64,000 nt of DNA from positions 577,961 to 641,960 of the forward strand of contig JBGAHD010000004.1 of NCBI GenBank assembly GCA_044226395.1. Direction: 5' to 3'. Under the pieces are notes generated by a model that made no database searches, had not been told where the DNA came from, and was given only the letters and a program-made list of their open reading frames with translations. The translations under genes were made by a program, and so were the position numbers. Every line of letters starts with the position of its first letter. The first letter of the stretch is position 1. This document shows, piece after piece, positions 3,389 to 47,141 of this stretch. Source of the DNA: Ahniellaceae bacterium. Lineage in GTDB: Bacteria > Pseudomonadota > Gammaproteobacteria > Xanthomonadales > Ahniellaceae.

Positions 3389-3880
3389 ATGATCGCGATG
3401 GTTCGTTTCCTTGTTGGCGCCTTGGCGCTGATCAGCCTCTCGGGCTGCGTCACGCAGCCGCCGCTCGATCCGCAAGGCGTGCGCCCCGAACTGTCGCCCA
3501 TCACCGCCGCCAGCGACGCCGGCGCCGACAACGCGCGCGTGATTTGGGGCGGCATGATCATCAGCGTGCGTAATCTCGCCGACAGTACCGAGATCGAGGC
3601 ACTGGCCTATCCGCTCGACAATCGCCAGCGCCCGTTGCTCAAGGCGCCGACCCAGGGTCGCTTCATCGTGGTGCTGCCGGGCTATGTCGAGGCCTATGAC
3701 TACCCGCAAGGGCGCTTTGCCACATGGCGCGGTCGCGTGATCGGCACGCGCGAAGTCACGCTCGGCGAGCATCCCTATCGCTATGCCCTGATGCGCGCCG
3801 ACGCGGGTCATCTGTGGCCGCAGGGTTTTCAGAACAGTGGCGTGCAGTGGAGCATCGGCGTGGGCGTGGGGGTGCATTGA
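3389..3880 (+). CDS. Slp family outer-membrane lipoprotein
   Basis: Lipoprotein signal MIAMVRFLVGALALISLSGC. Slp-family-like core (VIWGGMIISV ... GRFATWRGRVIG). Start chosen at the internal ATG after the spurious upstream extension. Confidence 0.6.
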   Translation: MIAMVRFLVGALALISLSGCVTQPPLDPQGVRPELSPITAASDAGADNARVIWGGMIISVRNLADSTEIEALAYPLDNRQRPLLKAPTQGRFIVVLPGYVEAYDYPQGRFATWRGRVIGTREVTLGEHPYRYALMRADAGHLWPQGFQNSGVQWSIGVGVGVH

Positions 3881-6079: not shown

Positions 6080-6459
6080 GTTGGCGTGTGCCTCTCGTCG
6101 GTAGGGGGACGCCCGCGCGCGCGGGCGTGTTCAGTATATGCCGATGCCCGCGATGCGCAAACCCGGCGCGGCCGCGCCCTGATCGCGACCACTTCGACGG
6201 CGTTGACCGCCGCGCGGCGACGTCATGGCGTAATGCGCGCCGCTGAGTGATTCGATACCGCCGTAAGTCGCGCTTATCGCCGCGCGAAATGCCCTTCTCG
6301 CGCGCGCCATCGAAAGCGAAAACTGCGGACCAATCCCCGTTTCAATCGCGCATTGGCGCGCGTAGCATGCCCGGGCCCAGTACGCCCAGGGAGGGCGCGC
6401 GGGTCGCGGAAGGGGTTCCGCGTCACATCCATGTTGAATCATTGAGTGGGGACAATTCG

Positions 6460-7863
6460 ATGCTTCGCAAAACCAAACTCGTGCTTGCCGTATGCCTGGC
6501 CTTCACCGCGATCGACGCGATGGCCACGGGTGAAACCGAAATGGGTTCCGATGTCGTGACCGTCGCGCCGGATTTCGGCGCGCTCGGTGGCGCGCGCTTC
6601 CAGACCACGTCGCCACGCAACGACGTGATCGCGCTGGGCGCGCCCAGCAGCGACGAGATCAACGCGCTGCGCGCGCGTCGTCACTTGCAACTCAAGCAAG
6701 GCGAGCCGCTGGAAGTCGGCATGCCGCGTGAAGTCGGTAGCAAGCAGATGCTCAAGGAGCTTTCCTGGGAATCGCTGCGCGGTGGCAACCTGGGCGCGCG
6801 CTTCGACGTGTCGTCGCAGGGCGCGGCCGCGCTGCGCGCCTCGCTCGCCTTCGAATGGGGCGGACCCGCGCTGCGCTCGCTGCGCGGCGGCAGCAATCCG
6901 CTGCGCGCCCTGCTCGATAAATCGACGTTCCGCTTCCAGGGCAATGGCGAAACCTTCGAAGTGGCCGGTCGCGACATGCTGATCGACGAGGAGAACTGGT
7001 CGCCCGCCGTCAGCGGCGATGCGTTGGCCGTGGAAATCGTACTGCCCAAGGACGCCGATCCGAGTTTTCTGCGCGTGCGCGTCGCGCAGCTGTCGCATCT
7101 GGACATCGACCCCAAGAGCAGTGACAAGGCGATCGCGGCCAAGATCGGCGAGAGCGATTCCTGCGAGCGCGACATCGTCTGTCGCACCAGTCCGCCGTCG
7201 GGCTTCCGCTCCACCGCCGACGCGGTCGCGCGCATGATCTTCACCAAGAGCGGCAGTTCCTATCTGTGCACCGGCACCTTGCTCAACAACAGCAATTCGC
7301 CGCGCAAGCACATGTTCTGGACCGCCAACCACTGCATCAGCACGCAGTCCGTGGCCAATACCTTGCAGACCTACTGGTTCTACGAGGCCACGACCTGCGG
7401 CGGCCTGACCGCGAGTTCACGTCGCACCACGCTGACCGGTGGCGCTTTCCTGCGTCATCACAACACCGCGCGCGACACCTCGCTGCTCGAGCTCAAGACC
7501 ACGCCGCCGACGGGCGCGGTCTACGCCGGCTGGAACTCCGCGGCGATCGCCAGCACCGGCACCGCCATCGAGGGCATCCATCACCCGGCGGGCGACGTGA
7601 AGATGTATTCGCTGGGCACGGTCAACCTGCTCAGCGGCAACATCGACGGCAAGGGCCCGTTCTATCGCGTGGTGTGGTCCACGGGCGTGACCGAGGGCGG
7701 TTCCTCGGGCTCGGGCCTGTTCACGGTCAACGGCTCCGGCGCGTATCAGTTGCGCGGCGGTCTGTACGGTGGCCTGTCTTTCTGCTCGGCGCCAAGCGAT
7801 CCGGACTACTACTCGCGCCTGGCCGATGTGTGGACCAGCATCCAGCCGTACTTGAGTCCGTAA
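6460..7863 (+). CDS. secreted trypsin-like serine peptidase (S1 family)
   Basis: Signal peptide MLRKTKLVLAVCLAFTAIDAMA. Catalytic His context TANHC and Ser context GGSSGSGLF. Start at the ATG at 6460 inside the longer listed ORF. Confidence 0.65.
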   Translation: MLRKTKLVLAVCLAFTAIDAMATGETEMGSDVVTVAPDFGALGGARFQTTSPRNDVIALGAPSSDEINALRARRHLQLKQGEPLEVGMPREVGSKQMLKELSWESLRGGNLGARFDVSSQGAAALRASLAFEWGGPALRSLRGGSNPLRALLDKSTFRFQGNGETFEVAGRDMLIDEENWSPAVSGDALAVEIVLPKDADPSFLRVRVAQLSHLDIDPKSSDKAIAAKIGESDSCERDIVCRTSPPSGFRSTADAVARMIFTKSGSSYLCTGTLLNNSNSPRKHMFWTANHCISTQSVANTLQTYWFYEATTCGGLTASSRRTTLTGGAFLRHHNTARDTSLLELKTTPPTGAVYAGWNSAAIASTGTAIEGIHHPAGDVKMYSLGTVNLLSGNIDGKGPFYRVVWSTGVTEGGSSGSGLFTVNGSGAYQLRGGLYGGLSFCSAPSDPDYYSRLADVWTSIQPYLSP

Positions 7864-9564: not shown

Positions 9565-9637
9565 TTGTGCAGCCGGACTCGAACCGGCGACAGCTGGATT
9601 ATCAGTCCAGTGCTCTAACCAACTGAGCTATGCGCAC
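9565..9637 (-). tRNA. tRNA-like gene with Ile(GAT)-type anticodon arm but imperfect acceptor stem (possible pseudo-tRNA)
   Basis: Minus strand reads GTGCGCA-TA-GCTCAGTTGGTTAGAGC-A-CTGGA-CTGATAA-TCCAG-CTGTC-GCCGGTTCGAGTCCGGC-TGCACAA. D, anticodon and T arms are canonical. The acceptor has two mismatches and there is no encoded CCA. Confidence 0.4.
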
Positions 9638-20916: not shown

Positions 20917-21498
20917 TCAATTCGCGCCGCTGGCGAACTTCAGCGCCGAATGCGCGGGGTCGAGACGCGGCGCGAGTTCATACACATTGCGATAACCGTA
21001 GGTGTACAGCGCGACATACGTCGACAGATTCAACGACGCCATTGGCAACTTGCTCGGAAACGCGCGCTCGCTGTTGACGAAGTTGTTGTTGCAATAGATC
21101 AGAATGCGCGCGTCTTTGTCCGGCAGCGTTTGTTCGAGCGTGGCCAACGCGATGTCGGGAAAGCTCAAGTTGATCGCGCCATCGATGTGCAGCTCGCGGA
21201 ATTTCTCCGCGCTGCGCGCATCGAGAATGATCGTACCCGGCTCGCGACTGAGCGCGATGAACTCCGCCTCCGACACCCGCCGCTGCGCGCGATGACGCGC
21301 GGCCTCGTCGGCGATGGCGAGGAAGCCCGCCATGTCGATGTTGGGGTTGTCGAGCGTGGTGGTCGGTGGCGCGGTGGCGGCCGCTGGGGCCGAAGCCGAA
21401 GCCGAAGTGGCCGCGGATTGGCGAGAGGGCGAAGTGGCGCAAGCGCCGAGCATGAGAATCAGTGAGGCGAGCGTGAGTGATACGACGGTGCGTTCCAT
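20917..21498 (-). CDS. rhodanese-like domain lipoprotein
   Basis: Lipobox LILMLGAC. Rhodanese active-site loop context ILIYCNNNFVNSERA. Confidence 0.6.
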   Translation of the reverse strand: MERTVVSLTLASLILMLGACATSPSRQSAATSASASAPAAATAPPTTTLDNPNIDMAGFLAIADEAARHRAQRRVSEAEFIALSREPGTIILDARSAEKFRELHIDGAINLSFPDIALATLEQTLPDKDARILIYCNNNFVNSERAFPSKLPMASLNLSTYVALYTYGYRNVYELAPRLDPAHSALKFASGAN

Positions 21499-21576
21499 GT
21501 TCCCCTCCCAAGCGCGTCAGGCGCGAGGGACTTGATTCGAGGGGTGGGGGGAAGTTCCCGGGGGTGGGGGCCGGTT

Positions 21577-22240
21577 GGGGACACCCAAGATTCCCAAGAG
21601 CCGCGAAGGCTCCTCGATTGGGGACACCCATGATTCCGGTCAGACCTGGGGGTCCTCCGACAGGGGGGCCGATATCTGGACACCCATGATCACCAGATGC
21701 CGGGGCCGCGAATGGGAACACCCATGAGCCTCAATCGAGATCAGGACACCCATGATCCCCACATGCCGGGCTTGTGAAATCGAGGACACCCATGGTCATC
21801 AGCGAGAATCGGACTGCCGATCCCGGACAACAAACGCTTTCAATTCAGCCAGATACTTCTGAATCGGGCGAACAATGGCGGTCCAATACCGAATCCCCAG
21901 GATTATGGGTGTGAAATCGAGGACACCCATGGTCATCAGCGAGAATCGGACTGCCGATCCCGGACAACAAACGCTTTCAATTCAGCCAGATACCTCTGAA
22001 TCGGGCGAACAATGGCGGTCCAATACCGAATCCCCAGGATTATGGGTGTCCCGATCTACGCCGATCGCCTGTGCGAACTGTGGGTGTCCCGATCAGCTCG
22101 GGAATCGGTGGGTGTCTCCAATCCCTCGCCTCCGGTCGCCTTCCCGAACCGTGGGTGTCCCGATCTGCTCGGGTGTCCCGATCTGCTCGGGAATCGGTGG
22201 GTGTCCCCATTCCCTCCCCGTGGGTGTCCCCATTCCCTCC
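21577..22240. repeat. array of ~15 copies of an ~11-bp core (GGACACCCATG / CACGGGTGTCC); ~7 forward then ~8 reverse; central 137-bp tandem duplication (21776..21912 and 21913..22049)
   Basis: Direct reading. Forward cores at ~21577, 21612, 21679, 21716, 21753, 21784 and 21921. Reverse cores at ~21907, 22044, 22081, 22110, 22153, 22170, 22199 and 22222. Spacing is mostly 30-40 bp. The 137-bp units differ by one base. Confidence 0.75.
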
Positions 22241-22242
22241 CC

Positions 22243-22944
22243 TCACCCCTCCACCCCCCGAAACCTCAACCCTACCCCCGGCTCGGTAATCAGGTACCTC
22301 GGCTCCGCGGCGCTGTCGCCCAGGCGCTGACGCAGGCGGCCGACGAGGACGCGCAGATAGTGGGTGTCCTCATCGTGGGATGTGCCCCAGACTTCGCGCA
22401 GGAGCTGCGCCTGCGTCACCACTCGACCCGCATGCCGCAGCAAAATCGCAAGCAGCGCGAATTCCTTACGTGACAACGCGACGGGCTGCCCTTCCCGCGT
22501 GACGACGCGACGCGCGAGGTCGATGCGCAGCACGCCGTCGTCGTACACCACGTCGCCGCTTTCGCCCGCGCCGCGCGCGCGCAGCAGGGCGCGCACGCGC
22601 GCCATGAGTTCTTGCACGCCGAAGGGCTTGGTCACGTAGTCATTCGCGCCGAGGTCGAGCAGTCGCACTTTCTCGACTTCGCGATCGCGCACCGAAAGCG
22701 CGATGACGGGCACGGTCGAGGTAGTCCGCAATTCGCGCAGCACATCGCCGCCGTCGCGGTCGGGCAGGCCGAGGTCGAGGATGATCAAATCGGGCTGCAA
22801 CGCAGCGGCGGCGGCGAGTCCTTCTTCGCCGTTGGCGGCTTCGATCACGGCGAAATCTTGCGCGCGCAGGCTGATTTCCAGGAATCGCCGGATCGCGGGT
22901 TCGTCGTCGATGATCAGGATGCGCGCCTTGGCCGCGGCCGGCAT
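22243..22944 (-). CDS. kdpE: KDP operon response regulator KdpE (OmpR family)
   Basis: MPAAAKARILIIDDEP receiver domain plus a winged-helix C-terminus. The start is 2 nt after the kdpD stop. The listed ORF's N-terminal extension is rejected. Confidence 0.9.
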   Translation of the reverse strand: MPAAAKARILIIDDEPAIRRFLEISLRAQDFAVIEAANGEEGLAAAAALQPDLIILDLGLPDRDGGDVLRELRTTSTVPVIALSVRDREVEKVRLLDLGANDYVTKPFGVQELMARVRALLRARGAGESGDVVYDDGVLRIDLARRVVTREGQPVALSRKEFALLAILLRHAGRVVTQAQLLREVWGTSHDEDTHYLRVLVGRLRQRLGDSAAEPRYLITEPGVGLRFRGVEG

Positions 22945-22946
22945 GG

Positions 22947-25664
22947 TCAATCCGCTTCGCGCGAGCCGGTCGGCGGCTCGGTCAGCGGCAACGATACGCG
23001 GATCAAGGTGCCGCGGCCATCGGGCCCCGCGTGCGCGCTTACTTCGCCGCCATGCGCGCCGATCATGCCCTGACAGATGGTCAGGCCCAGGCCCGTGCCC
23101 TGCCCGCCGCGATCGCCGCGCGCGACGGTGTAGAACATGTCGAAGATGCGCGCGCGCTCGTCGTCGGGAATGCCCGGGCCTTCGTCGCTGATCTCGATCA
23201 CCAGCCGCTCGCCTTCGCGATGCGCGCGCACGCGCACGGGGCTGCCGGGCGGCGAGAACTTCGCCGCGTTTTCGAGAATATTGAACAGCGACTGCTCGAT
23301 CAGCGCCGGATGCACGTAAAGCAGCGGCAAATCCTCCGGCAGGCTGACATCGACGCTCGCGCCCGGCGCGAGGCGACGCAGCCGCGTGACCGCGGCGCCC
23401 AGCACGTCCTCGAGTTGAATCCAATCGCGATCGAGCTTCAAGCCGCCATGACCCAAGCGCGTCATGTCGAGCAAGTTTTGAATATAGCGATCCAAACGCT
23501 GCCCTTCCTCGAGCACCGAGCGCAGCAACTGGCGCCGATCATCGCCGCTCAACTGCTCGCCATAGGCATGCAGGCTCGTGGCCGCGCCGATGATCGCCGA
23601 CAACGGCGAGCGCAGATCGTGCGAGACCGACGACAACAGCGCCGCGCGCAGTCGCTCCGTCTCGCCCTGCACTCGCGCGGCTTCCAAATCATTGAGCAAG
23701 CGCACGCGCTCGGCCGCTTGCGCGATATCTTGCACCAAGGCCTGCGCGAGATGTTCTTGCTCGGGCGTCAGGCGCTCGAGCCCTTCGCCCAGTCGCAGAC
23801 CGGCCACGCCCAGCGCGCGCCGCTCGATGATCAAGGGCAAGAACCACCAGCTCGAACCCGCCAGCGTGTCGGTGAATCGCCCCGCGGCTTGAGCATGCGC
23901 GATCGCCCAATCCGCCGCGGCGCGATCGCCATCGTCGAGCCGCGCGGATTCCGGTTGCGTCGCCACCACGCGCGCGACGCCGCCTTCGCGCGGCGTGGTC
24001 AGCAACACGCATTCGGCTTGCATCGCGCGCGCCAACCCCGCGGCGCCGGCGCGAAATACTTGCGCCTCGTCCGCCGCCGACGCCAGCGTTTGACCCAACG
24101 CGCGCATCGCGCCCGCATGCGCATTGGCCGCGCGCAGCATCACGACTTGTTCGCGCAATCGCGCGGCCATGCGCCCGCACAGCAGCGCCGTGATCAGGAA
24201 CGCCGCCACCGTCACCACGCCTTGGCGCGCGTTGATATAAAACGTGTAGCGCGGTTCGATGAAGAAGAAGTTGTAGCCAACGAAGCACAACACCGCCGCG
24301 TACACCGCCACGCTCATGCGCGAGCGCGTGGCCACCAGCAGCACGGCGGTGAGAAACACCAGCGACAGATCCGTCAGGCCCAACCACGATTCGGCCGCGA
24401 AGGCCAAGGCCACCGCGCCGATGGCCACGCCCGTGGCGAACAAGCCCCCGCGCAGGCGCTCGCGCGTGACATCGGGCGCCGTCTTCGACTCACGTCGCGA
24501 CTGCGCGCGCGCCGCCGGCGAGTGCACGATGGTCAGCTCGAAATGCGCGCCCCGCTGCAGCAACTGCTGCGTGATGGTGCGATTGAACATGCGCGCCAGC
24601 GGCCGCTCGCGCGTGCGTCCGAGCACGATGGTCGACACACCTTCGCGCATGGCGTAGTCGAGCAGTTCATCGACGATCTGCGTGCCGCGCAAGACCGCCG
24701 TGTCCGCGCCCAGTCGCCGCGCCAACTCAAAGGCCGCGTTCAAGGTGCGTCGCGTCGTCTCGCCGCGCGGCGCGCCGCGATCGACCCACACCACCGACCA
24801 CGGCGCCTGCCGACGTTCGGCGATGCGTCGACTCACGCGCACCAGATACTCGCTATTGGCGCTGCCATCGATGGCCAGCAGCACGCGTCGACGCACGCCC
24901 ACCGGCCCGCGCGCGCCTTGTTGGGTGAATTGATCGCGCAGATCGGCGTCGACGCGATCGGCCACGGCCTGTACCGCGAGTTCCCGCAGCGCCGTCAAGT
25001 TCGAAGGCGAAAAGAACTGCCGCAGCGCGGCTTGCGCGGTCTCGGGCAAATACACCTTGCCTTGTTGCAGTCGCTCGATGAGTTCACGCGGCGGCAGATC
25101 GATCAGCACCAGATCGCGCGCGCGATCGAACAGCGCGTCGGGCACGGTCTCGCGCACGGGCACGCCGGCGATGCGCGCGACGACATCGTTCAAACTCTCC
25201 AGATGCTGGATGTTGACCGTGGTGTAGACATCGATGCCGGCATCGAGCAGTTCCTCGATGTCCTGATAACGCCGCTCATGACGACTACCCGGCGCATTGC
25301 GATGCGCCAGCTCGTCGACCAGGATCAACGCGGGCCGTCGCGCCAGCGCGGCGTCGAGATCAAATTCGCGCACGCCGTGACCGCGATACTCGACTTGTCG
25401 CGGCGGCAAGATCTCCAAACCTTCGAGCAGCGCCGCGGTCTCGCGCCGCCCGTGCGTTTCGACCCAGCCCACGACCACGTCCACGCCCTGGCGCTTGAGA
25501 TCGCGCGCGGCGCCGAGCATCGCGTAAGTCTTGCCCACGCCGGGCGCGGCGCCGAGAAAAATCTTCAAGCGCCCGCCACGTTCGCGACTGACTTGCGCGA
25601 GCAAGGCCTCGGCGCGTTCGTGACGCTCGGGCGCGGATTCGGGTTCGGGTTCGCGCGTCGTCAT
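22947..25664 (-). CDS. kdpD: sensor histidine kinase KdpD
   Basis: N-terminal KdpD P-loop domain (GAAPGVGKTYAML), USP-like domain, TM region, and HisKA/HATPase C-terminus. Confidence 0.9.
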   Translation of the reverse strand: MTTREPEPESAPERHERAEALLAQVSRERGGRLKIFLGAAPGVGKTYAMLGAARDLKRQGVDVVVGWVETHGRRETAALLEGLEILPPRQVEYRGHGVREFDLDAALARRPALILVDELAHRNAPGSRHERRYQDIEELLDAGIDVYTTVNIQHLESLNDVVARIAGVPVRETVPDALFDRARDLVLIDLPPRELIERLQQGKVYLPETAQAALRQFFSPSNLTALRELAVQAVADRVDADLRDQFTQQGARGPVGVRRRVLLAIDGSANSEYLVRVSRRIAERRQAPWSVVWVDRGAPRGETTRRTLNAAFELARRLGADTAVLRGTQIVDELLDYAMREGVSTIVLGRTRERPLARMFNRTITQQLLQRGAHFELTIVHSPAARAQSRRESKTAPDVTRERLRGGLFATGVAIGAVALAFAAESWLGLTDLSLVFLTAVLLVATRSRMSVAVYAAVLCFVGYNFFFIEPRYTFYINARQGVVTVAAFLITALLCGRMAARLREQVVMLRAANAHAGAMRALGQTLASAADEAQVFRAGAAGLARAMQAECVLLTTPREGGVARVVATQPESARLDDGDRAAADWAIAHAQAAGRFTDTLAGSSWWFLPLIIERRALGVAGLRLGEGLERLTPEQEHLAQALVQDIAQAAERVRLLNDLEAARVQGETERLRAALLSSVSHDLRSPLSAIIGAATSLHAYGEQLSGDDRRQLLRSVLEEGQRLDRYIQNLLDMTRLGHGGLKLDRDWIQLEDVLGAAVTRLRRLAPGASVDVSLPEDLPLLYVHPALIEQSLFNILENAAKFSPPGSPVRVRAHREGERLVIEISDEGPGIPDDERARIFDMFYTVARGDRGGQGTGLGLTICQGMIGAHGGEVSAHAGPDGRGTLIRVSLPLTEPPTGSREAD

Positions 25665-25681
25665 GTCGCGACGATACTCGC

Positions 25682-26311
25682 TCAGGACCCGGCGTGCCCA
25701 GCGTCGGCGGGCGCGCGCGCGTGCTCGTCGAGCCACAGATTCAAGGCCAGCACGTTGACGCGCGGTTGGCCGAGCACGCCCAGACTCGGTGCCTCGGTGA
25801 AGCGCGCGATGGCGTCATTCACGACGTCGACCGAGACACTCCGCGCGCGCGCCACGCGCGGCGCCTGCAGCATCGCCGCCGCTGGCGACAGGTGCGGATC
25901 GATGCCGCTGCCCGAGGCCGCGACCAGTTCCACGGGAATCGCTGTCGGCGTCACACCCTCGCGCGCCGCGATCGCCGCCGAAGCGTGTTGCGCGCGCTCG
26001 CGCAAGGCCGGCTGACTCGGCGCCCAATTGCTGCCCGCGAGCGAAGACGATGAGTAGTTCGCCGCCGAAGGTCGCGAGATGAAGTAGCGATCGTCGGCAA
26101 ACGGCTGCGCCATCAACAGCGAACCGACGACTTGCCCCTCGCGCTCGACCAAACTGCCGCGTGCCGCTTCGGGAAACAAGGCGCCGCTCACACTCACCGC
26201 GAGCCACGGATACACCAGCCCCGCGAACACGACACCGACCGCGGCGAACACGATTCCCGCGCGCCAACCGCCACCGCGCGCGTCGAGCGACTCAACAGAA
26301 GTCTCGTTCAT
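25682..26311 (-). CDS. kdpC: potassium-transporting ATPase subunit C
   Basis: ~200 aa with a single N-terminal TM helix. KdpC-like sequence. Its coordinates overlap the kdpB stop. Confidence 0.9.
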   Translation of the reverse strand: MNETSVESLDARGGGWRAGIVFAAVGVVFAGLVYPWLAVSVSGALFPEAARGSLVEREGQVVGSLLMAQPFADDRYFISRPSAANYSSSSLAGSNWAPSQPALRERAQHASAAIAAREGVTPTAIPVELVAASGSGIDPHLSPAAAMLQAPRVARARSVSVDVVNDAIARFTEAPSLGVLGQPRVNVLALNLWLDEHARAPADAGHAGS

Positions 26312-34131: not shown

Positions 34132-35496
34132 ATGAACGCGCCCGACACCGGCTCACCCACGGCGGCGCCGGTGTCGGCGATCGCGGCGCTGACGTATCCG
34201 GTCGCGACCGCGGCCTTGATGGTCAGCGGCATGCTGATCTTCCTGCAGATCCTCGCGGTTGGCGTGATCCAGATCGGTGGCATGGTGCCGCGCTTCTTCG
34301 GCGCGCCGCTCGCGGGCACGATCGGCGAGATCGCGGTGAGCGCGATCGGTTATCTGGTCCATGTCGTCATTTGGATTTGCCTGTATCGCTACGGCTTCGA
34401 GGTGCTGTTTCTCAGCGCCAACGGCCGTCGTCAGCCGCCCGAAGTCGTGGGCCTGGTGGAAGGCGAGGTGGCCAATCGCCATGTCTGGCTGCAAATCGCC
34501 TTGATGTTCGCCTGCGTCATCGTGGCGCGTCACGCGGGCACCTCGATGGGCTTGATCGTAGCGGTGGCGCTGGGCGCGCTGATGCCGGCCGCGGCGATCA
34601 CGCTGACGGTGACGCAGAGCCTGGTCGCCGCCATCAATCCGCTGCAATGGGGGCGCGCCTTGGGCGTCCTCGGCCCGCGTTACGTCGCGCCCATGCTCGT
34701 GGCCATGATCATGGCCCCGCTGACCACGTTCGCCATCGACTGGATGCCGAAGACCGAGCCCTACGTCGCGGGCGTGATCATCTACTACGCGTCCGCGCAT
34801 TTCGTGGTGATGCTGGGTTTTCATCTGATGGGCCTGGCGCTGCATGCCGAGGCCGCGCGTTTGCATTTTCAGGTCGACGCGAAGACATTGCCGGCGCATC
34901 GCTTGCGCGTGGACGAAGATCCGATCCTGCGACGCGCCGAATTGCTCGCGCGCGGCCATGATCTCGCCGCCGCGGCGGCGCTGCTCGAGGATGCGCTCAA
35001 GCACGGCGGCGGCATCGCGATGCATCATCGCTATCGCGAATACCTGACGCGTCTCGGCGATCGCGATCGCCTGCGGGCGCATTCATCCACCTTCATAACC
35101 TTGCTGCGCGCCACTCACGGTGATAGACCGGCACTGAAACTACTACTGGACTGCAGGTCAGAAGACTCCACCTTCTTACCAACAGAGGTTGAAGACAGCA
35201 CTGCCCTAATCATCTCCCTCGCAAAGTCAGGGAACAACGCAGCTGCATTGTCCGCGTTTGCAGATCTTCAGAACTCTATTCCGCGTAGCACCAAGACAAT
35301 GCTCTGCGCATTGACTCTCGCACAGGAATTTCTATTCAAAAACCAACGCATCGAGGATGCAATACGCCTATCTCAACAAGCGAAGCAGACTGCAAAATCC
35401 ACAAATTGCTCCAGTCCCGAAATCCTTTCATTGATAGACGCTGTAGAAGAGCAACTCGCGAAGAATCGTGGTGAGTCTAATGAAAGTGAAGGATAA
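34132..35496 (+). CDS. polytopic membrane protein whose C-terminal ~135 aa are encoded by low-GC foreign DNA (chimeric 3' end)
   Basis: Multiple TM helices in high-GC DNA up to ~35085. The reading frame then continues into ~48% GC sequence encoding a TPR-like helical tail. Confidence 0.5.
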   Translation: MNAPDTGSPTAAPVSAIAALTYPVATAALMVSGMLIFLQILAVGVIQIGGMVPRFFGAPLAGTIGEIAVSAIGYLVHVVIWICLYRYGFEVLFLSANGRRQPPEVVGLVEGEVANRHVWLQIALMFACVIVARHAGTSMGLIVAVALGALMPAAAITLTVTQSLVAAINPLQWGRALGVLGPRYVAPMLVAMIMAPLTTFAIDWMPKTEPYVAGVIIYYASAHFVVMLGFHLMGLALHAEAARLHFQVDAKTLPAHRLRVDEDPILRRAELLARGHDLAAAAALLEDALKHGGGIAMHHRYREYLTRLGDRDRLRAHSSTFITLLRATHGDRPALKLLLDCRSEDSTFLPTEVEDSTALIISLAKSGNNAAALSAFADLQNSIPRSTKTMLCALTLAQEFLFKNQRIEDAIRLSQQAKQTAKSTNCSSPEILSLIDAVEEQLAKNRGESNESEG

Positions 35497-36523
35497 GAAA
35501 TGGCGATCAAAAAGACGAATGAAGGTCATTCGTGCAAAAGAGAGGAAACGGGCACTTAGAACGCGCCGCCAGAAAGCAAACAAAAGACGCGGCTTGGGCC
35601 TGAAGCGTCGGTCTTGGACTTTGACCTCCATAAGAGTCCAGATGCCGGAGCAGATCGCATTAGATCTTCACCCGAACCATGGAGACGTCTGCAAGACCAT
35701 TCAGGAGATAAGGTCAGCAGTTGCGAGGTCAAAACACGTCCAGCTTGACTTCTCGCGAACCAAAAAGGTGATTGCTGGAGGGATGTTAAGAGTGTATGCA
35801 GAACTACACGCACTCGCGACACTTTTCCCTCGAGTCCGATTCACATGCAAGCCACCTAAGGATGATGTTGTTGATCAAGTTCTACAGCACTTGTCCCTCT
35901 ATGATTTCTTTGGTTACACCTCGAACACCAAGCCGACCAGATCAGATGTAGTTTCCTGGAAGACTGCTTCATCAAACATAGTAGACGGTGTTTTAGCGGG
36001 TCAGCTCCTAGAGACCTATCATGGTCTGCAGAAGGAGCGCGCGAAGGCCCTCTTCAGAGGCACAACAGAAGCGATTTCCAACGTCATCTATCATGCATAT
36101 CCTGAATCGGTTCTTCCTGATGCAGCCAAATGGTGGATGTTCTGCCGAGAAGACGAGGACAAATTAGTGGTTGCAGTTTGTGACAGAGGAATTGGAATTC
36201 CAAGGTCACTGCCGGCCCGATACCCGCGAGAAGTCTGGGGTCGACTTGTCGATAGATTTAGCTTTGGGAGTCATCATCGAGACGGAGCCTTTATTCGCGC
36301 AGCTTTGGAAATGAGGAGATCTAGGACTGGCAAATCGAATCGAGGCAAGGGCCTTCACGACGTTGTTTCGGTGGCGAGATCTTGCGAGGGATCGAGAGTA
36401 TTCATATTCAGCAACAGGGCTTGCGTTACATATGATTACCTCGGAGAGAAAATCAAAGTATCTAACTTCAAGAGGTCAATTGAGGGCACGCTGATCCTCT
36501 GGTTTCTACCATTGCAGAAGTGA
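35477..36523 (+). CDS. GHKL/histidine-kinase-like ATPase (RsbW/SpoIIAB-type HATPase_c) with highly basic N-terminal tail
   Basis: K/R-rich first ~45 aa. N-box EAISNVIYHAYPE, G1 VAVCDRGIGIP, G2 GKSNRGKGLHDV, G3 GSRVFIFSN. Start ambiguous (GTG 35468, ATG 35477, ATG 35519). Confidence 0.5.
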   Translation, partial: LMKVKDKKWRSKRRMKVIRAKERKRALRTRRQKANKRRGLGLKRRSWTLTSIRVQMPEQIALDLHPNHGDVCKTIQEIRSAVARSKHVQLDFSRTKKVIAGGMLRVYAELHALATLFPRVRFTCKPPKDDVVDQVLQHLSLYDFFGYTSNTKPTRSDVVSWKTASSNIVDGVLAGQLLETYHGLQKERAKALFRGTTEAISNVIYHAYPESVLPDAAKWWMFCREDEDKLVVAVCDRGIGIPRSLPARYPREVWGRLVDRFSFGSHHRDGAFIRAALEMRRSRTGKSNRGKGLHDVVSVARSCEGSRVFIFSNRACVTYDYLGEKIKVSNFKRSIEGTLILWFLPLQK

Positions 36524-36530
36524 GATCGCC

Positions 36531-36854
36531 ATGAAAGGAAAAGAAACTACAATCAATATTGGAAAGACCTTTAACCGCTTCCCCGCTGGCAGGACGGAGA
36601 AGGATGGAATAGGGAGCGGCGAGGAGTTCAGGAAAAAGGTCCTGAGTACCGCACTTGGCGACTATGAAGTTCTTAACATCGAAATGGACGATACTCTGGG
36701 ATATGGATCTTCGTTCCTAGAAGAGGCCTTCGGCGGGCTCGTTCGTGACGGATTCTCCGCATCTGATCTACGACGCAGAATAAGAATACTGTCTGAAGAC
36801 GACTCACTTAAAGTCGAGATATTTGGGTACATTGACGAAGCGAGCAAATCATGA
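36531..36854 (+). CDS. STAS-like / DUF4325-like small protein (putative partner of the GHKL ATPase)
   Basis: 107 aa. EVLNIEMDD...GYGSSFLEEAFGGLV motif as I recall it for DUF4325-type STAS-like domains. 8-nt gap after the upstream gene. Confidence 0.45.
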   Translation: MKGKETTINIGKTFNRFPAGRTEKDGIGSGEEFRKKVLSTALGDYEVLNIEMDDTLGYGSSFLEEAFGGLVRDGFSASDLRRRIRILSEDDSLKVEIFGYIDEASKS

Positions 36855-37396
36855 GCGACCTCATCGCATGCTTCGATATCTTGATCAAGTTGGTTTCTCC
36901 AATTGTTACCTGGTCGCTCGTTGTCGCTGGGTGGGAGATCATTGGCCGCCAACAGGACCAACGCGAGCACATCAAGTTCCTTGCATCCAGCGCGCAGGAC
37001 GTCAGACAAAGGGTAAGGAGGCTAGCCGAGGATGCAGCAGAATTTCATATGAAAGAGAGATTTGAGCCTAAGCATGCTCATCTCCTTTTGCGCACCCTTA
37101 AGCAAATAGCTTCGGACATCACAGTGTTGGGCAAGGCACACCTTGCCGGGGAGAACTACTTGGGCGCGATTGTAAGCCTGAGACAAGCTGTTACCGGGAG
37201 CAACTTTTCTGAAGCATCGTTTAGCCAAAGGTCCGCAGACGACTTGACCGTAAGAAGCATCGAGATTAGCGCTGATGGCTTGGATTTCCTTCTTGCAAGA
37301 TCAATCAATGCAAAGCTCCTTGGCGGCGTCCAAAGACTTAGCATCTGGAACGTTGCGCTGTCCATGTTCAGTTCATCGTCGCCCACAAACCGCTGA
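36851..37396 (+). CDS. hypothetical membrane-anchored protein
   Basis: ATGA overlap with the upstream gene. N-terminal hydrophobic helix LIACFDILIKLVSPIVTWSLVVAGWEII followed by ~150 aa of helical soluble region. No recognisable family. Confidence 0.4.
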   Translation: MSDLIACFDILIKLVSPIVTWSLVVAGWEIIGRQQDQREHIKFLASSAQDVRQRVRRLAEDAAEFHMKERFEPKHAHLLLRTLKQIASDITVLGKAHLAGENYLGAIVSLRQAVTGSNFSEASFSQRSADDLTVRSIEISADGLDFLLARSINAKLLGGVQRLSIWNVALSMFSSSSPTNR

Positions 37397-37540
37397 GTAA
37401 ATACGATTGATGGCATTGAGTTCTTGGCTGCGGCCAATAGATGATGCTTGTTTCGCATGCGCGAACCCAAGATGAGGCCCTCCGTAGGCGGGAGGGCTCT
37501 CATTGGCATGCCGAGTTGCTATTGAAAAGTCGAAGTTGCG

Positions 37541-37909
37541 CTAGTTCGGACACCCCGCATTGATCCAATCGATCAGCGGTTGAATCTGCGCCGCCGTCCA
37601 CGGCCCCGTGCCATCGGCCGGCATCTGCCCATAGCTGCCGTTGGGCCCAAACAGCGGGCCGACGCCTTGCAGCGCCTGCACGATGTTCGAGTTCGCGGCA
37701 TTGCCCGGCACGCAGACGCGCACGGGCGGGCTGATGTTGGGCACATTGCCGGTGATGAACTGCTGATACGTGAGCACGTTCCAGAACGCGTGATGCGGCG
37801 CGCTGGCGATCGAGGTGTTGTAGTACGCGATCAACTTATTCATGTACGCCTGGAATTGCGCGTAGTTCTGGATCACGGCCGCGGCGGTATTGGCTTCGGT
37901 GGTGGTCAT
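37541..37909 (-). CDS. hypothetical protein (122 aa)
   Basis: Only the C-terminal part of listed ORF 37541..38407 has a protein-like composition (MTTTEANTAAAVIQNYAQFQAYMNKLIAYY...). The upstream part is R/S/T/P-rich frame noise overlapping the real 603-aa gene. Confidence 0.5.
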   Translation of the reverse strand: MTTTEANTAAAVIQNYAQFQAYMNKLIAYYNTSIASAPHHAFWNVLTYQQFITGNVPNISPPVRVCVPGNAANSNIVQALQGVGPLFGPNGSYGQMPADGTGPWTAAQIQPLIDWINAGCPN

Positions 37910-37922
37910 GTGGTTTCCCTGA

Positions 37923-39734
37923 TCATCGCGTGGTGGAAGGTTTGGCCGGATCGGCGGCGTCGTCGCTCTTGGCGTCCGGCTTGCCGGCGTCGTCGGCGGA
38001 CACGCCGGCATCCGGGTCGAACACCGCTTTGAAGCGCGTCTGCGACACTTGCACCTGCTGCGCGTTGGCCGCGGTTTCGGGCGCGCGCGCGGGCTGATTG
38101 CCCAGGATGAAACTGAAGTCCGCGCCCAGCGTCGACTGCGCCACGGAATGACAGCCCATGCAGCCGCCCATGTCGTACGAGGCCTTGAGCGAGCCATTGG
38201 CGTTGAGCACGTAAGCGTTCTGCTGATACAGCGTGCCCGAACTCGTGTAGTTGGTCGGCGCGCCATTGCTGGCCACGCGGCCGTTGAAGTTCTGCAGCGT
38301 GTAGTTGGTTTCGACCACGCTGTTGGCCAGATAGAACGTCGCGGCGTTATGCGGGTCGCTCGGGTTGTTGACGATCTGCGTAACGCTGAACGGATACGCC
38401 TGGACATTGACCAGCTTGTAGTACTGCCACGGCGAGTTCTTAATGCCCTTGCTTTGCGAATACGTCGCGATGGCCGCGTGCGCTTGCTGATTGGCGGTGA
38501 CGATCGGCGGCGGAATGGCGCGATCGCGCTGATTGACGCAGATGCTGCCGCCCGTGGGCACGCCGGTCTGACCGGCCGTGTTGTTGTAGAACAGATGCGG
38601 ATTGTTCTTGGTGTTGCAGTAAGGCTGACCCGCCACCACGCTCACTTGTGGATTGTTCGGATCGTCCTTGTACGTCAGCGCTGGCGAAGTCGCGGTGCCC
38701 GAGGGATTGATCACCTTGCCGTTGACGTCTTCCACGGCCACCGGCTTGCCGTTGACCACGGTCAGCAGATTGTCGGCTTGCTCGAACGTGGCGAAGACGA
38801 AGGCCGGCGCGGTCGGCGTCTTCTGAATGATGTGCAGCGCCACCAGGCCCCACACGGCTTCGCGATAGCAAGGGCCGCCGCCGCTGGCGGTCTCGTAGTA
38901 ACGCACCGTGGTCGAGTAGAAGCGCTGCGAGCTTTGCTCGGCGGCGGTCAGCGGCCGGAAGGCGGCCTTGGTCTCGATCGTGCCCGCGGGAAAATTGATG
39001 TAGGGCGACGCCGGCGGAAACGTGCCCGTGTTCACCGCCTTGATGAAGTTCTGCCGCGCCGTGCGGCGTGGCGCGTTGGCGACTTCATACCAATACTTGT
39101 TGGCCGCGACATAGGTGTACTCGACGCTGTTGGCCTTGGCCATGAAGCGGATCAATTGCGGCGCCGCGTTCTTGGGCTGCGCGGCGGCGGGATTGATGCC
39201 CGCGTACATCGAATCGAGTCCGATCTGAGTCACTTCATCGAGATTGATCCACGCCGGTTGCGGCGGCGGAGTCTGACCACTGCACGCGGGCACCACGCCA
39301 TTGGTGCCGACGCCGGCGTTGTAAACATAGCTCGGCGGCGTGTTGTAGCCATACGTCGGCGGTCCCGCGCTGTAGCCCGCGGGCGGCGACGAGGCACTGT
39401 TGGTGCCGGGGAAGATTTCGATCTTGGCGCGATACGTGTGCCACACCAGCGGCCCCGTGCCCGCGCCGAAGTTCTGCGTGGTGTCCGGCACGTCGCGCTG
39501 ACCGGCCTTGGCCGGCCAATTCAAGGCGATGAACTCCTGCCACGCGAAGGTGGCGGCGGTGGCGAGGCTGGCGTTCGGCGCGCCGCCGGGAATGTCCTTG
39601 GGCACGACGGGCGAGATAGTGATCGCGGCGGCGGCCGAAGCGTCATCGCTCGACGCGGCGGGCGGATCGTCGGCGCCAGCGATACCGGGCACGACGACGA
39701 GAGTGGCACTGAGGAATGCACGGATGAGTTTCAT
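37923..39734 (-). CDS. secreted hypothetical protein with single CXXCH motif
   Basis: Signal peptide MKLIRAFLSATLVVVPGIAGA. 603 aa, rich in G/N/P/T. CMGCH near the C-terminus. Lies 13 nt upstream of the 122-aa ORF, so a likely operon. Confidence 0.55.
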   Translation of the reverse strand: MKLIRAFLSATLVVVPGIAGADDPPAASSDDASAAAAITISPVVPKDIPGGAPNASLATAATFAWQEFIALNWPAKAGQRDVPDTTQNFGAGTGPLVWHTYRAKIEIFPGTNSASSPPAGYSAGPPTYGYNTPPSYVYNAGVGTNGVVPACSGQTPPPQPAWINLDEVTQIGLDSMYAGINPAAAQPKNAAPQLIRFMAKANSVEYTYVAANKYWYEVANAPRRTARQNFIKAVNTGTFPPASPYINFPAGTIETKAAFRPLTAAEQSSQRFYSTTVRYYETASGGGPCYREAVWGLVALHIIQKTPTAPAFVFATFEQADNLLTVVNGKPVAVEDVNGKVINPSGTATSPALTYKDDPNNPQVSVVAGQPYCNTKNNPHLFYNNTAGQTGVPTGGSICVNQRDRAIPPPIVTANQQAHAAIATYSQSKGIKNSPWQYYKLVNVQAYPFSVTQIVNNPSDPHNAATFYLANSVVETNYTLQNFNGRVASNGAPTNYTSSGTLYQQNAYVLNANGSLKASYDMGGCMGCHSVAQSTLGADFSFILGNQPARAPETAANAQQVQVSQTRFKAVFDPDAGVSADDAGKPDAKSDDAADPAKPSTTR

Positions 39735-44754: not shown

Positions 44755-44906
44755 GGATCGACTCCGGTTTCGAGGGGCGGCCAGGGTGCCGGGGGCGATT
44801 GATGGGTGTCCCGAAGTCGGGTTCCTTTTTTTCTCCGTTCGTGGCGAGGTAGCTGCAAGCGCTTGATGGGCTTGGCAAGTCGCGCGCGCTGGGGCAAGGT
44901 GAGGCG

Positions 44907-47141
44907 ATGAGCGAATGGCCGCGCGCACGACTTCGAATCGGCGAGTTCGACTTCGATACCTCGAGCTTCGAACTGCATCGCGCCGGCGTGACCCAGCGCC
45001 TGCCCCATCGCCTGGGCGGCTTGTTGTGGCGTCTGGCGCGCGCGCCGGGCGAAGTGCTCGGTCGCGACACCTTGATCGCCGACGTCTGGTCCGGCCGCGC
45101 CACCGACGACGTGCTCTCGCGCGCGGTCGCCGACCTGCGCCGCTTCCTCGCCGACGATTCCCGCCAGGCGCGTTACATCGAGACCGTGCCGAAGATTGGC
45201 TATCGCCTGATCGCCCCGGTGCGCGACCTCGCCGAATCGAGGACACCCATCGATTCCAGGACACCCCTCGAAGCGAACTCCGATTCGGGGACACCCATCG
45301 AATCCGGAACCACCCGCAACTTCGGGACACCCACGGATCTGGGTCTCGATTCCAGGACACCCACGGATCGACGCCAGCCCAAGCCGCGCCAATCCAGGAC
45401 ACCCACCAAACGCCAACTCGCGCTCGCCATCGGCCTGACCCTGCTGGCCTCGCTCGCCGCGTGGCGCTGGTCGACCTCCGATTCGCCACGCACCGACCCC
45501 AGCCCCCTCGGCCTCTCACCACAACGCCTCACCACCGAACGTCCGCTCACCGCCGACCCCGGCTGGGAACTCCACCCCAGCCTGTCGCCCGACGGCAGCC
45601 TCGTCGCCTTCGCGCGCATGGACAAGTTCGGCGCGAGCAGCACCCTGGTCGCGCGCTACGTCGACGGCAGTTCCGAACGCGAGTACGCCGAGCCCGCCGG
45701 CTGGAATCTGCATCCCGCATTCTCGCCACGCGGTCAGCAACTGGCCTTCATCCACGTCGGCGCCGACGGCGATTGCGAAGTGCGCCTGCGCCCCGTGCAT
45801 GGCGATCCTTCCGTCGTGGTCGGTCGCTGCGCGGGACTCAACACCGCCGTCGCCTGGCGCGCGGACGGCGAGGCGCTGACCTTCACCGCGCCCGCGGACG
45901 ACGATCACGATCCCGGCCTTGTCGAACTCACGCTCGCCACGCGCGCGATCGAGCCGCTCACCCAACCGGCGCGCGGCGCCGGGCCCGACAGCGATCCGCA
46001 GTACGTGCCCGGCGGCGACGAGATCAGCTTCGCGCGCGGCACCGGCAGCGACGCGCGCCTGCTCGCCGTCACGCGCGACGACGCGCATCGCGAACGCACG
46101 CTGTTCGGCGGCGGCAATCTGATCCAGGGCCACGCGTGGAGCGCCGACGGCGCGCAAATCATCATGGCCACCGACTGGCCCGGCTATCGCGCGCTGATCG
46201 GCATCGATCCGCGCACGCTCGTGGGCAACACGCTCGGCGCGCGCGGCGCGCGCAGTCCCACGACCAACGCGCGCGGCGACTGGGCCTACGAGATCGCGCG
46301 TTACGACGCCAATATTCATCGCGTCGATTTTCGCGACGACTCGGTCGACGAACACGCGCTCGTCGCCAGCACGCGCTACGACGCTTCGATCGCGCTGTCG
46401 CCCGATGGTCGACGTCTCGCCTTCGTCAGCACGCGTCTCGATCACGAATCCATCTGGATCGTCGACACCGCCGGCGGCGACGCGGTGCGCGCGCCACTGC
46501 CCGACACCGGTCGCTGGGTGCGCCCCGCGTGGTCGCCCACGGGCGATGCGCTGCTGGTCACGCGCTATCTCGACGACATCACCACCGCGCATCGCCTCGA
46601 CCTAGCCAGCGGCCGCGCGCGCGAACTCACCGCGCTGGGCCGCGCGTTCTACGCGCAATATCTCGAAGACGGCGAACGCTTCGTGTTCGCGCGACTCGAA
46701 GCCACGGGCTATCGCCTCTTTCTCGCGCCGGCCGACGGCTCGGTCGAACCCGAAGCGCTCGACATCGCTGGCGCCGTCGGCGAGTTCTACGCCGGCGATC
46801 ACTGGCTCGCCTGGCAGCGTCGCGACGACAACACGCTCGCGGTCTACGATCTGCGTCGTCGCGCGCTGACGCCCTTGCCCGATGACTGGGCCACCGCGCG
46901 CCCCGAGGACTGGCGCTTGCAAGGTCATCGCCTCTACCGCATCGTCGACGACGAAGGTCAAGCTCCGCGCCTGCGGCGCCTCGATCTCGAAGACGGCCAG
47001 ACCCACGAGTGGCCCGCGCGCGCCACGCGCGCGACGGCGCCCGCGCTCGCGGTGGCGCCGGACGAAAGCTTCGCGCTGTTCGCCAGCCTCGACGATCTCG
47101 AGGTCGATCTGATGTGGGTGCCCGCCGCGCGCTCGCCCTGA
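44907..47141 (+). CDS. CadC/ToxR-like winged-helix transcriptional regulator fused via TM helix to periplasmic TolB-like beta-propeller
   Basis: N-terminal trans_reg_C-like region (FDFDTSSFELHRAGVTQRLPHRLGGLLWRL ... ETVPKIGYRLIAP). Linker with S/G-R-T-P repeats. TM helix LALAIGLTLLASLAAW. TolB-like repeats (SLSPDGSLVAFAR, AFSPRGQQLAFIHV, ALSPDGRRLAFVS). Confidence 0.7.
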   Translation: MSEWPRARLRIGEFDFDTSSFELHRAGVTQRLPHRLGGLLWRLARAPGEVLGRDTLIADVWSGRATDDVLSRAVADLRRFLADDSRQARYIETVPKIGYRLIAPVRDLAESRTPIDSRTPLEANSDSGTPIESGTTRNFGTPTDLGLDSRTPTDRRQPKPRQSRTPTKRQLALAIGLTLLASLAAWRWSTSDSPRTDPSPLGLSPQRLTTERPLTADPGWELHPSLSPDGSLVAFARMDKFGASSTLVARYVDGSSEREYAEPAGWNLHPAFSPRGQQLAFIHVGADGDCEVRLRPVHGDPSVVVGRCAGLNTAVAWRADGEALTFTAPADDDHDPGLVELTLATRAIEPLTQPARGAGPDSDPQYVPGGDEISFARGTGSDARLLAVTRDDAHRERTLFGGGNLIQGHAWSADGAQIIMATDWPGYRALIGIDPRTLVGNTLGARGARSPTTNARGDWAYEIARYDANIHRVDFRDDSVDEHALVASTRYDASIALSPDGRRLAFVSTRLDHESIWIVDTAGGDAVRAPLPDTGRWVRPAWSPTGDALLVTRYLDDITTAHRLDLASGRARELTALGRAFYAQYLEDGERFVFARLEATGYRLFLAPADGSVEPEALDIAGAVGEFYAGDHWLAWQRRDDNTLAVYDLRRRALTPLPDDWATARPEDWRLQGHRLYRIVDDEGQAPRLRRLDLEDGQTHEWPARATRATAPALAVAPDESFALFASLDDLEVDLMWVPAARSP
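45240..45406 (+). repeat. in-CDS tandem repeats of the GGACACCCA core (encode D/E-S-R/G-T-P linker repeats)
   Basis: Units GAGGACACCCATCGATTCC, AGGACACCCCTCGAAG, GGGGACACCCATCGAATCC, GGGACACCCACGGATCTGG, AGGACACCCACGGATCG and AGGACACCCACCAAACG. Confidence 0.6.

Follow-up and report, generated by a model that had tools for sequence, protein, structure and literature searches.

A gene-less inverted array of short repeats beside kdpE, a probable member of a dispersed Y1-transposase-associated repeat family

In the window (the whole 64-kb stretch of DNA that was analysed), the spacer between a kdpE-type response regulator gene and a rhodanese-domain gene is occupied by an array of short repeats that belongs to a repeat family found in many bacteria, and the family follows a firm orientation rule. 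Very probably, we are dealing with a gene-less and non-autonomous representative of a dispersed family associated with Y1 transposases—an analogue of a REPIN or of an empty TIRtron. Many other bacteria carry these repeats on either side of a REP-transposase-like gene, with the two sets facing inward just as they do here, which argues for a gene-less copy of the element rather than a landing pad for a regulator.

Layout and growth of the array

The core GGACACCCA occurs 18 times in exact form in the 64-kb window, as compared to 0.23 occurrences expected from dinucleotide-preserving shuffles (maximum of 2 in 100 shuffles). All of these exact cores are accounted for by two arrays, one solo copy (44803) and one match inside kdpE (22361). 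The latter encodes part of ...DEDTHYLRV... and is probably a chance match.

The array in the kdpE–rhodanese spacer comprises 11 exact and four near-exact cores. Seven forward cores are followed by seven reverse cores plus one truncated reverse core, in line with the roughly 15 cores—about seven forward, then about eight reverse—of a preliminary description of this DNA. The same description had placed the cores at a spacing of about 30–40 bp; the measured start-to-start distances cover a somewhat wider range (18–56 bp, and 137 bp across a duplication described below). It had also stated that the array fills the whole intergenic region of about 750 bp up to the kdpE stop codon, and indeed the spacer measures 744 bp and is filled: the last base of the outermost unit is 22242, abutting the stop codon at 22243–22245, and the last codons of kdpE (…RFRGVEG-stop) overlap the G-rich terminus of the right arm. 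Both neighbouring genes lie outside the element and are given here as context. The rhodanese-domain gene (20917–21498, minus strand; Pfam PF00581) adjoins the left arm, while the gene on the other side (22243–22944, minus strand) carries Pfam receiver and Trans_reg_C domains and was read as KdpE, in agreement with the genomic location first proposed. Upstream of it, a long ORF (22947–25736) is what we take to be kdpD.

The left arm (21560..21792, plus strand) opens with a G-rich outer terminus (21560–21578), which precedes six forward units with cores at 21579, 21622, 21678, 21716 (GAACACCCA, one mismatch), 21744, and 21784; the 3′ end of these cores (…CCCA) points toward the centre. A seventh, exact forward core (21921, plus strand) resides in the second block of the 137-bp duplication. 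On the opposite side, the right arm (22043..22248, minus strand) harbors seven reverse cores at 22043, 22081, 22109, 22152, 22170, 22198, and 22221, and closes with a G-rich outer terminus. Those at 22109 and 22170 have one mismatch each and the other five are exact. A unit of the window type reads AATCGG-GGACACCCA-CCGATTCC, and the outer ends of both arms constitute an inverted-repeat pair (21560–21587 and 22221–22248; 28 nt, 75% complementary). Between the innermost forward and reverse cores lies a central spacer of 113 bp (21930..22042) with a G+C content of 52%, versus about 66% for the window. The overall layout is hence that of a forward arm, a 113-bp spacer instead of a gene, and a reverse arm, and this spacer takes the position that a transposase-like gene occupies in the full elements of other genomes. 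The large-scale palindromic architecture noticed earlier is thus real, and corresponds to the inward-facing ends of an element of the Y1-gene type. The 113-bp spacer itself resembled neither the 119 loci fetched from other genomes nor any other part of the window. No relation to the inner flanks of complete elements was detected either, which leaves an origin of the array by deletion of the gene unsupported.

Tandem Repeats Finder reported 2.0 copies of a 137-bp period at 21773–22049 with 99% matches, and a separate repeat search agreed. The two blocks (21773–21909 and 21910–22046) differ by one mismatch and sit at the point where the orientation switches, confirming the near-perfect tandem duplication of the preliminary description, whose coordinates (21776..21912 and 21913..22049) were offset by 3 nt. 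Each block contains one forward core (21784 or 21921) together with the 113-bp central spacer, and the junction carries a 3-nt TGT microhomology. The truncated reverse core TGGGTGTga (21906–21914, minus strand), which closes the first block, is a product of this duplication. Within the right arm (minus strand), a perfect 23-bp tandem (22197–22242) and an 18-bp tandem (22153–22191) represent recent local duplications, and a 49-nt block of two units is repeated 89 bp apart (22082–22130 and 22171–22219; 92% identity). Both the arms and the centre therefore grew by recent local tandem duplications (137, 49, 23, and 18 bp).

Recent tandem duplications (here those of 137, 23, and 18 bp) are also what one would see in an ordinary minisatellite that arose by slippage only, with no link to a transposase and with the core recurring elsewhere by coincidence. 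Slippage, however, copies whole units, whereas here the core is kept and the spacers differ in both sequence and length. The array is likewise unlike a CRISPR locus, in that its conserved part spans 9 nt, its orientation flips, its spacing varies between 18 and 56 bp, and its flanks are partly repeated.

We also considered a role at the RNA level. The minus-strand RNA of 21560–22260 folds better than its shuffles (z = −3.85) and could form a long imperfect hairpin, and a short stem that holds the core in its loop can be drawn for some units. Both features would suit a structured RNA, either a long hairpin in a kdpE–rhodanese transcript or a protein-sponge RNA with repeated loops, that acts through termination, stability or sequestration. 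Yet the better fold is expected from the inverted arms, and core-enclosing stems are not general: a stem of at least 4 bp encloses the core in 13% of 868+ copies compared to 7% of controls (22% of the window copies). Moreover, units occur in both orientations and within coding sequence; terminator prediction returned no terminator-like site within the array, the sole predicted one being inside kdpE; and an Rfam search yielded nothing at gathering thresholds, with noise only at E up to 10. A structured RNA is therefore a very improbable account of the array. Any effect of the array on the expression of kdpE or the rhodanese gene would be a by-product, for which a long imperfect hairpin in RNA or in single-stranded DNA may be one possible route.

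Several further motif-based candidates were discarded. A hairpin with the core in its loop fits a few window units (AATCGA…TCGATT) and is not general. Mini-ORFs consisting of a ribosome-binding site and an ATG (GGACACCCATG…TGA overlaps) fit two consecutive units and fail at the next, and in other genomes the core is followed by C or T, without an ATG. Finally, CsrA-type sponge RNA, DnaA boxes and parS/centromere arrays were dismissed on account of motif mismatch, orientation flips, and the genome-wide dispersal of arrays.

The core and its transposase-like neighbour in other genomes

We searched one genome per species (596 Gb) for three exact cores separated by gaps of 14–44 nt—a query that selects for exact triple cores—and obtained at least 119 loci with such triple cores, where our rough estimate of the chance expectation for unrelated spacers is <0.1. 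Among the matches listed, the arrays contain 811 exact cores and 108 with one mismatch, and belong mainly to Gammaproteobacteria (Pseudomonadales, Alteromonadales, Chromatiales, and Lysobacterales), with further arrays in Planctomycetota and Acidobacteriota. Most of the listed loci combine an invariant core with near-random outer flanks (identity of about 0.3–0.45), and most have several arrays with irregular spacing (not a multiple of 3), often without a covering ORF. A minority of the listed matches (in Streptomyces, Virgisporangium, Silvanigrella, and others) consist of coding repeats or of plain tandems. These are probably unrelated and coincidental.

The family unit that emerges is about 20–25 bp long and has a non-palindromic, almost invariant core, (R)GACA(Y)CCA, which takes the form GGACACCCA in the window, surrounded by lineage-specific flanks; an extended consensus, AAWTnn-GGACACCCA-Y, is weak. 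Arrays have up to seven units per end, and one gene-less array has 28. Where a gene is flanked, the two ends within a locus share about 20–25 bp that include both the core and the lineage-specific flanks. The units closest to those of the window come from a Gammaproteobacteria metagenome-assembled genome (MAG; AATCGGGGACACCCACCGATTCC and CAATCCAGGACACCCACCAAC); they are nearly identical, and flank the Y1 gene of that locus. Orientation switches in the listed loci are convergent (→←) in 42 cases versus divergent in 10. In the searchable literature, the core was not mentioned in this context, and string matches were to primers and unrelated sequences.

The gene associated with these arrays is exemplified by Marinobacter nauticus, in which a 338-aa ORF has forward copies on its upstream side and reverse copies on its downstream side; the ORF gives a weak match to Y1_Tnp and a sub-threshold match to NCBIfam REP_Tyr_transpos. 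A profile search with this protein retrieved homologues in 28 of the 119 8-kb loci among the matches listed; by our rough estimate, such an association would arise by chance in about 1%. In 20 loci, 61 forward and 6 reverse copies lie upstream of the gene and 4 forward and 49 reverse copies downstream (Fisher P = 5.5e-22), and the innermost copies have median positions of −91 relative to the start codon and +208 relative to the stop codon. Complete elements accordingly present one to seven forward units upstream and one to seven reverse units downstream of a gene of about 330 aa.

As a motif-free test, we chose ten loci by protein similarity alone and then fetched their flanks. The set consists of Ferrimonas balearica, Halomonas denitrificans, Paraglaciecola, Planctobacterium, Agarivorans, Thioalkalivibrio, a Thiotrichales MAG, Thiodiazotropha, and two plasmids, from Shewanella (the conjugative plasmid pNi1-3) and Saccharobesus. 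Forward RGACAYCCA was present at −74 to −114 from the start codon in nine of the ten, and its reverse counterpart at +189 to +270 from the stop codon in eight. Motif-selected and protein-selected loci thus agree, and the association between core and gene holds in both directions. These data bear also on the slippage-only minisatellite introduced above. A 596-Gb scan for a thrice-repeated 9-mer will catch unrelated tandems, as the pure tandem or coding matches L037, L040, L056, and L100 illustrate; against this, orientation switches have one preferred polarity and the core stands at fixed distances from the gene in loci that were selected by protein. We consequently deem a minisatellite of this sort very unlikely.

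The proteins encoded next to the arrays are about 330 aa long (321–348 aa in most loci), and their alignment, with lengths of about 325–340 aa, revealed invariant NH[Y/T]H, WE, and YVDLNP motifs (N70 H71 H73, W165 E166, Y186–P191). By its length, its motifs, its multi-copy habit and the taxa in which it occurs (Alteromonadales and Chromatiales), the neighbour gene matches TnpA_Y1 subclass 2.3, which is related to RAYT and TIRYT; Ferrimonas, for instance, has several copies of the gene. Queries from subclass 2.1 matched only the shared core of the neighbour proteins, plus one fragment in a single locus (L028). In an AlphaFold model (pLDDT 80.8, with the C-terminal 50 residues poorly modelled), the best structural match was the E. 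coli TnpA_REP (RAYT) with a REP hairpin (4ER8, E = 9e-6), followed by IS200/IS605 transposases. Two protein searches each returned >8,000 protein clusters for this gene family, the members of which are annotated as 'transposase', 'DUF1568' or 'REP element-mobilizing transposase RayT'. In the 64-kb window, tblastn and profile searches at maximum sensitivity in all frames detected no Y1 transposase-like gene or remnant (best E = 0.7), and a cognate enzyme in the source organism is hence an assumption.

Copies at a CadC-like locus

A second array (45241..45405, plus strand), not recorded as an array in the preliminary description, is located within the coding sequence of a CadC-like regulator (44907–47141). 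Its six cores, all of them forward, lie at 45241, 45259 (one mismatch), 45289, 45325, 45355, and 45397; apart from the one at 45259, they are exact. The protein consists of a wHTH, one TM helix and a TolB-like beta-propeller; the array lies in frame in its cytoplasmic linker. The spacings between exact cores (48, 36, 30, and 42 nt) are all multiples of 3, and translation of the array yields (D/x)S(R/G)TP(I/T)(D/E) peptide repeats. A linker stretch of about 55 residues is unique to the CadC-like protein of the window, and is missing from 11 aligned homologues. By this alignment, the cores in the CadC gene constitute a lineage-specific in-frame insertion and not an operator. The solo core (44803..44811, minus strand) maps to the divergent intergenic region upstream of the same gene. 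With copies in a tolerant coding linker as well as in the upstream spacer, the repeat behaves as spreading DNA, unlike an operator.

These copies are relevant to the regulatory interpretation, namely that the spacer array consists of operators, iterons or decoy sites for a host DNA-binding protein—the CadC-like wHTH protein or KdpE—and controls the rhodanese gene. There is something to be said for it, as the asymmetric 9-mers, which occur in either orientation, precede a gene and adjoin that of a wHTH regulator, and a second cluster plus a solo copy are found at the CadC-like locus. However, the cores at the CadC locus are within coding sequence, in an insertion that homologues lack; the spacing in the kdpE–rhodanese array is irregular (18–56 bp) and without helical phasing; and no sigma-70-like promoter was predicted in the kdpE–rhodanese spacer. 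The neighbours of the arrays in the 119 listed loci include no CadC-like, rhodanese or KdpE homologue except for one weak response-regulator match, and the gene that does recur beside the arrays is Y1 transposase-like and obeys a strict orientation rule. We thus regard a regulatory function as very unlikely. Of the four roles put forward in the preliminary description, a repeat of the REP/minisatellite type proves essentially right, while the array of transcription-factor sites, the iterons and the nucleoid-protein landing pad find no support, given the recurrent Y1 gene and its fixed orientation rule; its suggestion of the CadC-like regulator as binder is likewise unsupported by the same neighbour survey and by the insertion within the CadC gene.

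Conversely, since the core encodes in-frame RTP/GTP repeats in the CadC-like protein, and since some matches of the genome scan are truly coding, in three different frames, the spacer array might be imagined as a decayed or unannotated coding sequence with an R/G-T-P peptide repeat. The intergenic spacings, however, are not multiples of 3 (43, 56, 38, 28, 40…), frames and strands differ, and the overlapping ORFs are short (up to 153 aa), with none of them spanning the array. Of all the explanations considered, we give this one hardly any credence.

A gene-less copy of a transposase-associated element would account for both loci as follows. The core GGACACCCA would be the recognition or cleavage element of a Y1 enzyme. 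This enzyme, which we assume to be encoded elsewhere in the source genome, may have seeded copies in the kdpE–rhodanese spacer and, likewise, in front of the CadC-like gene as well as in frame within it. By analogy to IS200/IS605 and REP systems, spread may have proceeded by single-strand cut-and-paste or copy. After seeding, local duplications would have enlarged the array. Neither a mobility event nor a target-site duplication or an empty site was observed.

Relation to known systems and significance

Previous work offers several points of comparison. Quentin et al. 2018 used automatic and manual searches and found no REP-like sequences around subclasses 2.1 and 2.3 (PMC6006769), and Bertels et al. 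reported low counts of flanking 16-mers for the related Group 1 (PMC5581495). Relative to TnpA_Y1 subclass 2.3 as published, the loci described here differ in having a conserved, inverted core whose distances from the gene are fixed, and given that published surveys list no flanking repeats for this subclass, the link between repeat and transposase may be new.

TIRtrons form the nearest template in several respects. Di Nocera et al. 2013 describe them as RAYT-like TIRYT genes located between inverted repeats, which often share GGGGWSAS; TIR copies occur scattered, singly, in pairs (dimers) or in groups, as in Stenotrophomonas maltophilia, and the taxa include Xanthomonadales, Acidobacteria, and Planctomycetes (PMC3733652). 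The TIRYTs of that account are about 230–250 aa long, with NHVH, YIELNP and a C-terminal HTH-like tail (PMC3733652), and equate to subclass 2.1. As in TIRtrons, a Y1 transposase-like gene is here flanked by inverted repeats that are unrelated to GTAG REPs. GGGGACAC fits GGGGWSAS, so far as the motif itself and not the individual TIR sequences are compared; GGACAC corresponds to the last six positions of GGGGWSAS, and the full GGGGACAC is found at five of the 18 exact window cores. Unlike TIRYTs, the proteins that accompany GGACACCCA arrays measure about 330 aa and contain NHYH and YVDLNP (subclass 2.3), and the ends are multi-copy arrays whose core of 8–9 nt is invariant across phyla.

The REP/BIME/REPIN–RAYT systems share with the present family short, clustered extragenic repeats that are inverted around a single-strand HUH/Y1 gene, as well as gene-less inverted doublets; in-frame intragenic copies in flexible linkers are known for REPs, too, and the E. 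coli TnpA_REP is the best structural match of the neighbour protein model. In contrast to those systems, the units here have no palindromic hairpin and are not linked to GTAG or GTGG (the GT[AG]G tag), they form same-orientation blocks instead of alternating, and their core is common to several phyla, whereas REP families are lineage-specific. IS200/IS605 elements have in common the HUH/Y1 catalytic fold and short, specific end sequences, but their ends are subterminal hairpins on one strand and not inverted repeats, and their copies are uniform and nearly identical, with the gene included; no tnpB was noted beside the genes examined here. Several asymmetric direct sites per end, with the two ends mutually inverted, are also a feature of Tn7 TnsB sites, Mu att sites and derived MITEs, the gene-less form of which resembles the window array. 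Ends of the Tn7/Mu type, however, go with DDE transposases, fixed site numbers and spacings, and defined termini with target duplications, none of which were seen here.

The general kind of system is therefore known (REP/RAYT, TIR/TIRYT), and what appears to be undescribed is the specific form, with a linear core that crosses phyla, multi-unit inverted ends and an association with subclass 2.3. Taking this further, we see it as an evenly balanced proposition that the orphan enzymes of TnpA_Y1 subclass 2.3, and perhaps those of 2.1/TIRYT as well, have (R)GACA(Y)CCA as their DNA recognition or end sequence, which had so far gone unrecognised. This would amount to a REP-like system that relies on a linear motif instead of a hairpin, that has multi-unit inverted ends, and whose gene-less arrays spread between genes and, in frame, into linkers. 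Earlier surveys, with their focus on palindromes or abundant 16-mers, would then have overlooked it.

For the window, a mobile or selfish repeat replaces the regulatory reading that is so tempting at first sight. The same reading accounts for both the odd RTP/GTP peptide repeats of the CadC-like regulator and the assembly break in short-read contigs. More broadly, such arrays break assemblies and make in-frame insertions, and they can be mistaken for regulatory sites, CRISPR-like or minisatellite loci; the core provides a simple signature to annotate them. While the array alone is of modest interest, the family-level link between repeat and transposase is of greater use: the very large TnpA_Y1 subclass 2.3 lacks a reported DNA substrate, and a core at fixed distances from the gene supplies a concrete oligonucleotide for binding and cleavage assays.

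Boundaries and assembly of the kdpE–rhodanese array

G-rich inverted termini (GGGGTGGGGG-like; inverted-repeat pair I1) enclose the array of inward-facing short repeats in the kdpE–rhodanese spacer, at 21540-21578 and 22243-22260. Since the right terminus overlaps the final kdpE codons (…RFRGVEG*) and the kdpE stop codon adjoins the outermost repeat unit, the repeat element as a whole may provide the final part of the kdpE reading frame. Another exact copy of the core, the 9-nt repeat motif of general form (R)GACA(Y)CCA, lies within kdpE itself (22361-22369, minus strand), where it encodes part of ...DEDTHYLRV...; this copy is probably a chance match, separate from the array.

Short-read assemblies are broken by the 137-bp duplication and the array. 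The rhodanese-bearing short-read contig (L001, from Logan SRR28480388) ends 304 bp upstream of the gene, within the first 137-bp unit, and its portion upstream of the rhodanese gene corresponds to 21499-21802.

A second array within a coding sequence, and other features of the window

Core repeats form a second array at 45241-45405 (plus strand), inside the gene for the CadC-like wHTH–TM–propeller protein (CDS 44907-47141), whose reading frame is kept. The repeats fall in the cytoplasmic linker and are read as RTP/GTP peptides, and this linker segment of ~55 aa is missing in the 11 homologues compared. Two Logan assemblies (L002 and L003) carry an identical copy of the gene, with core positions unchanged.

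Elsewhere in the window, an island of low G+C content (35000-38000; about 50% vs about 66%) looks horizontally acquired. Its first ORF of note (35468-36523) matches HATPase_c_2 below threshold; next come a STAS-like ORF of the DUF4325 type (36531-36854) and several ORFs without Pfam matches. At gathering threshold, Rfam matches the window only once, at a tRNA gene (9566-9637, minus strand).

Arrays and Y1 transposase-like genes in other genomes

Some arrays in other genomes are extreme: a Baikal Gammaproteobacteria MAG (L046, 6719-7564) has 28 cores in one orientation within 850 bp, and loci L041 and L085 carry arrays at four or five separate sites within 8 kb, those of L085 being regular tandems with a 20-bp period.

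At the Marinobacter nauticus locus L007, the 5′ end of the Y1 transposase-like gene recurs as truncated duplicates at 3712-3855 and 6336-6659. Both have the same repeat unit and leader in front of them, a pattern that points to partial duplication of the element anchored at its end. In Thioalkalivibrio sp. ALE9 (L129), the expected downstream repeat is absent 3′ of the Y1 gene, and DUF4160, DUF2442, and CopG-antitoxin-like ORFs follow immediately in its place; replacement or interruption of the right end of this element seems likely. Finally, a subclass-2.3-like gene with a core at −74 resides on the Shewanella decolorationis plasmid pNi1-3 (L132, 216064-219036), a conjugative MOBH/MPF_F plasmid that offers a plausible means of spread between lineages.
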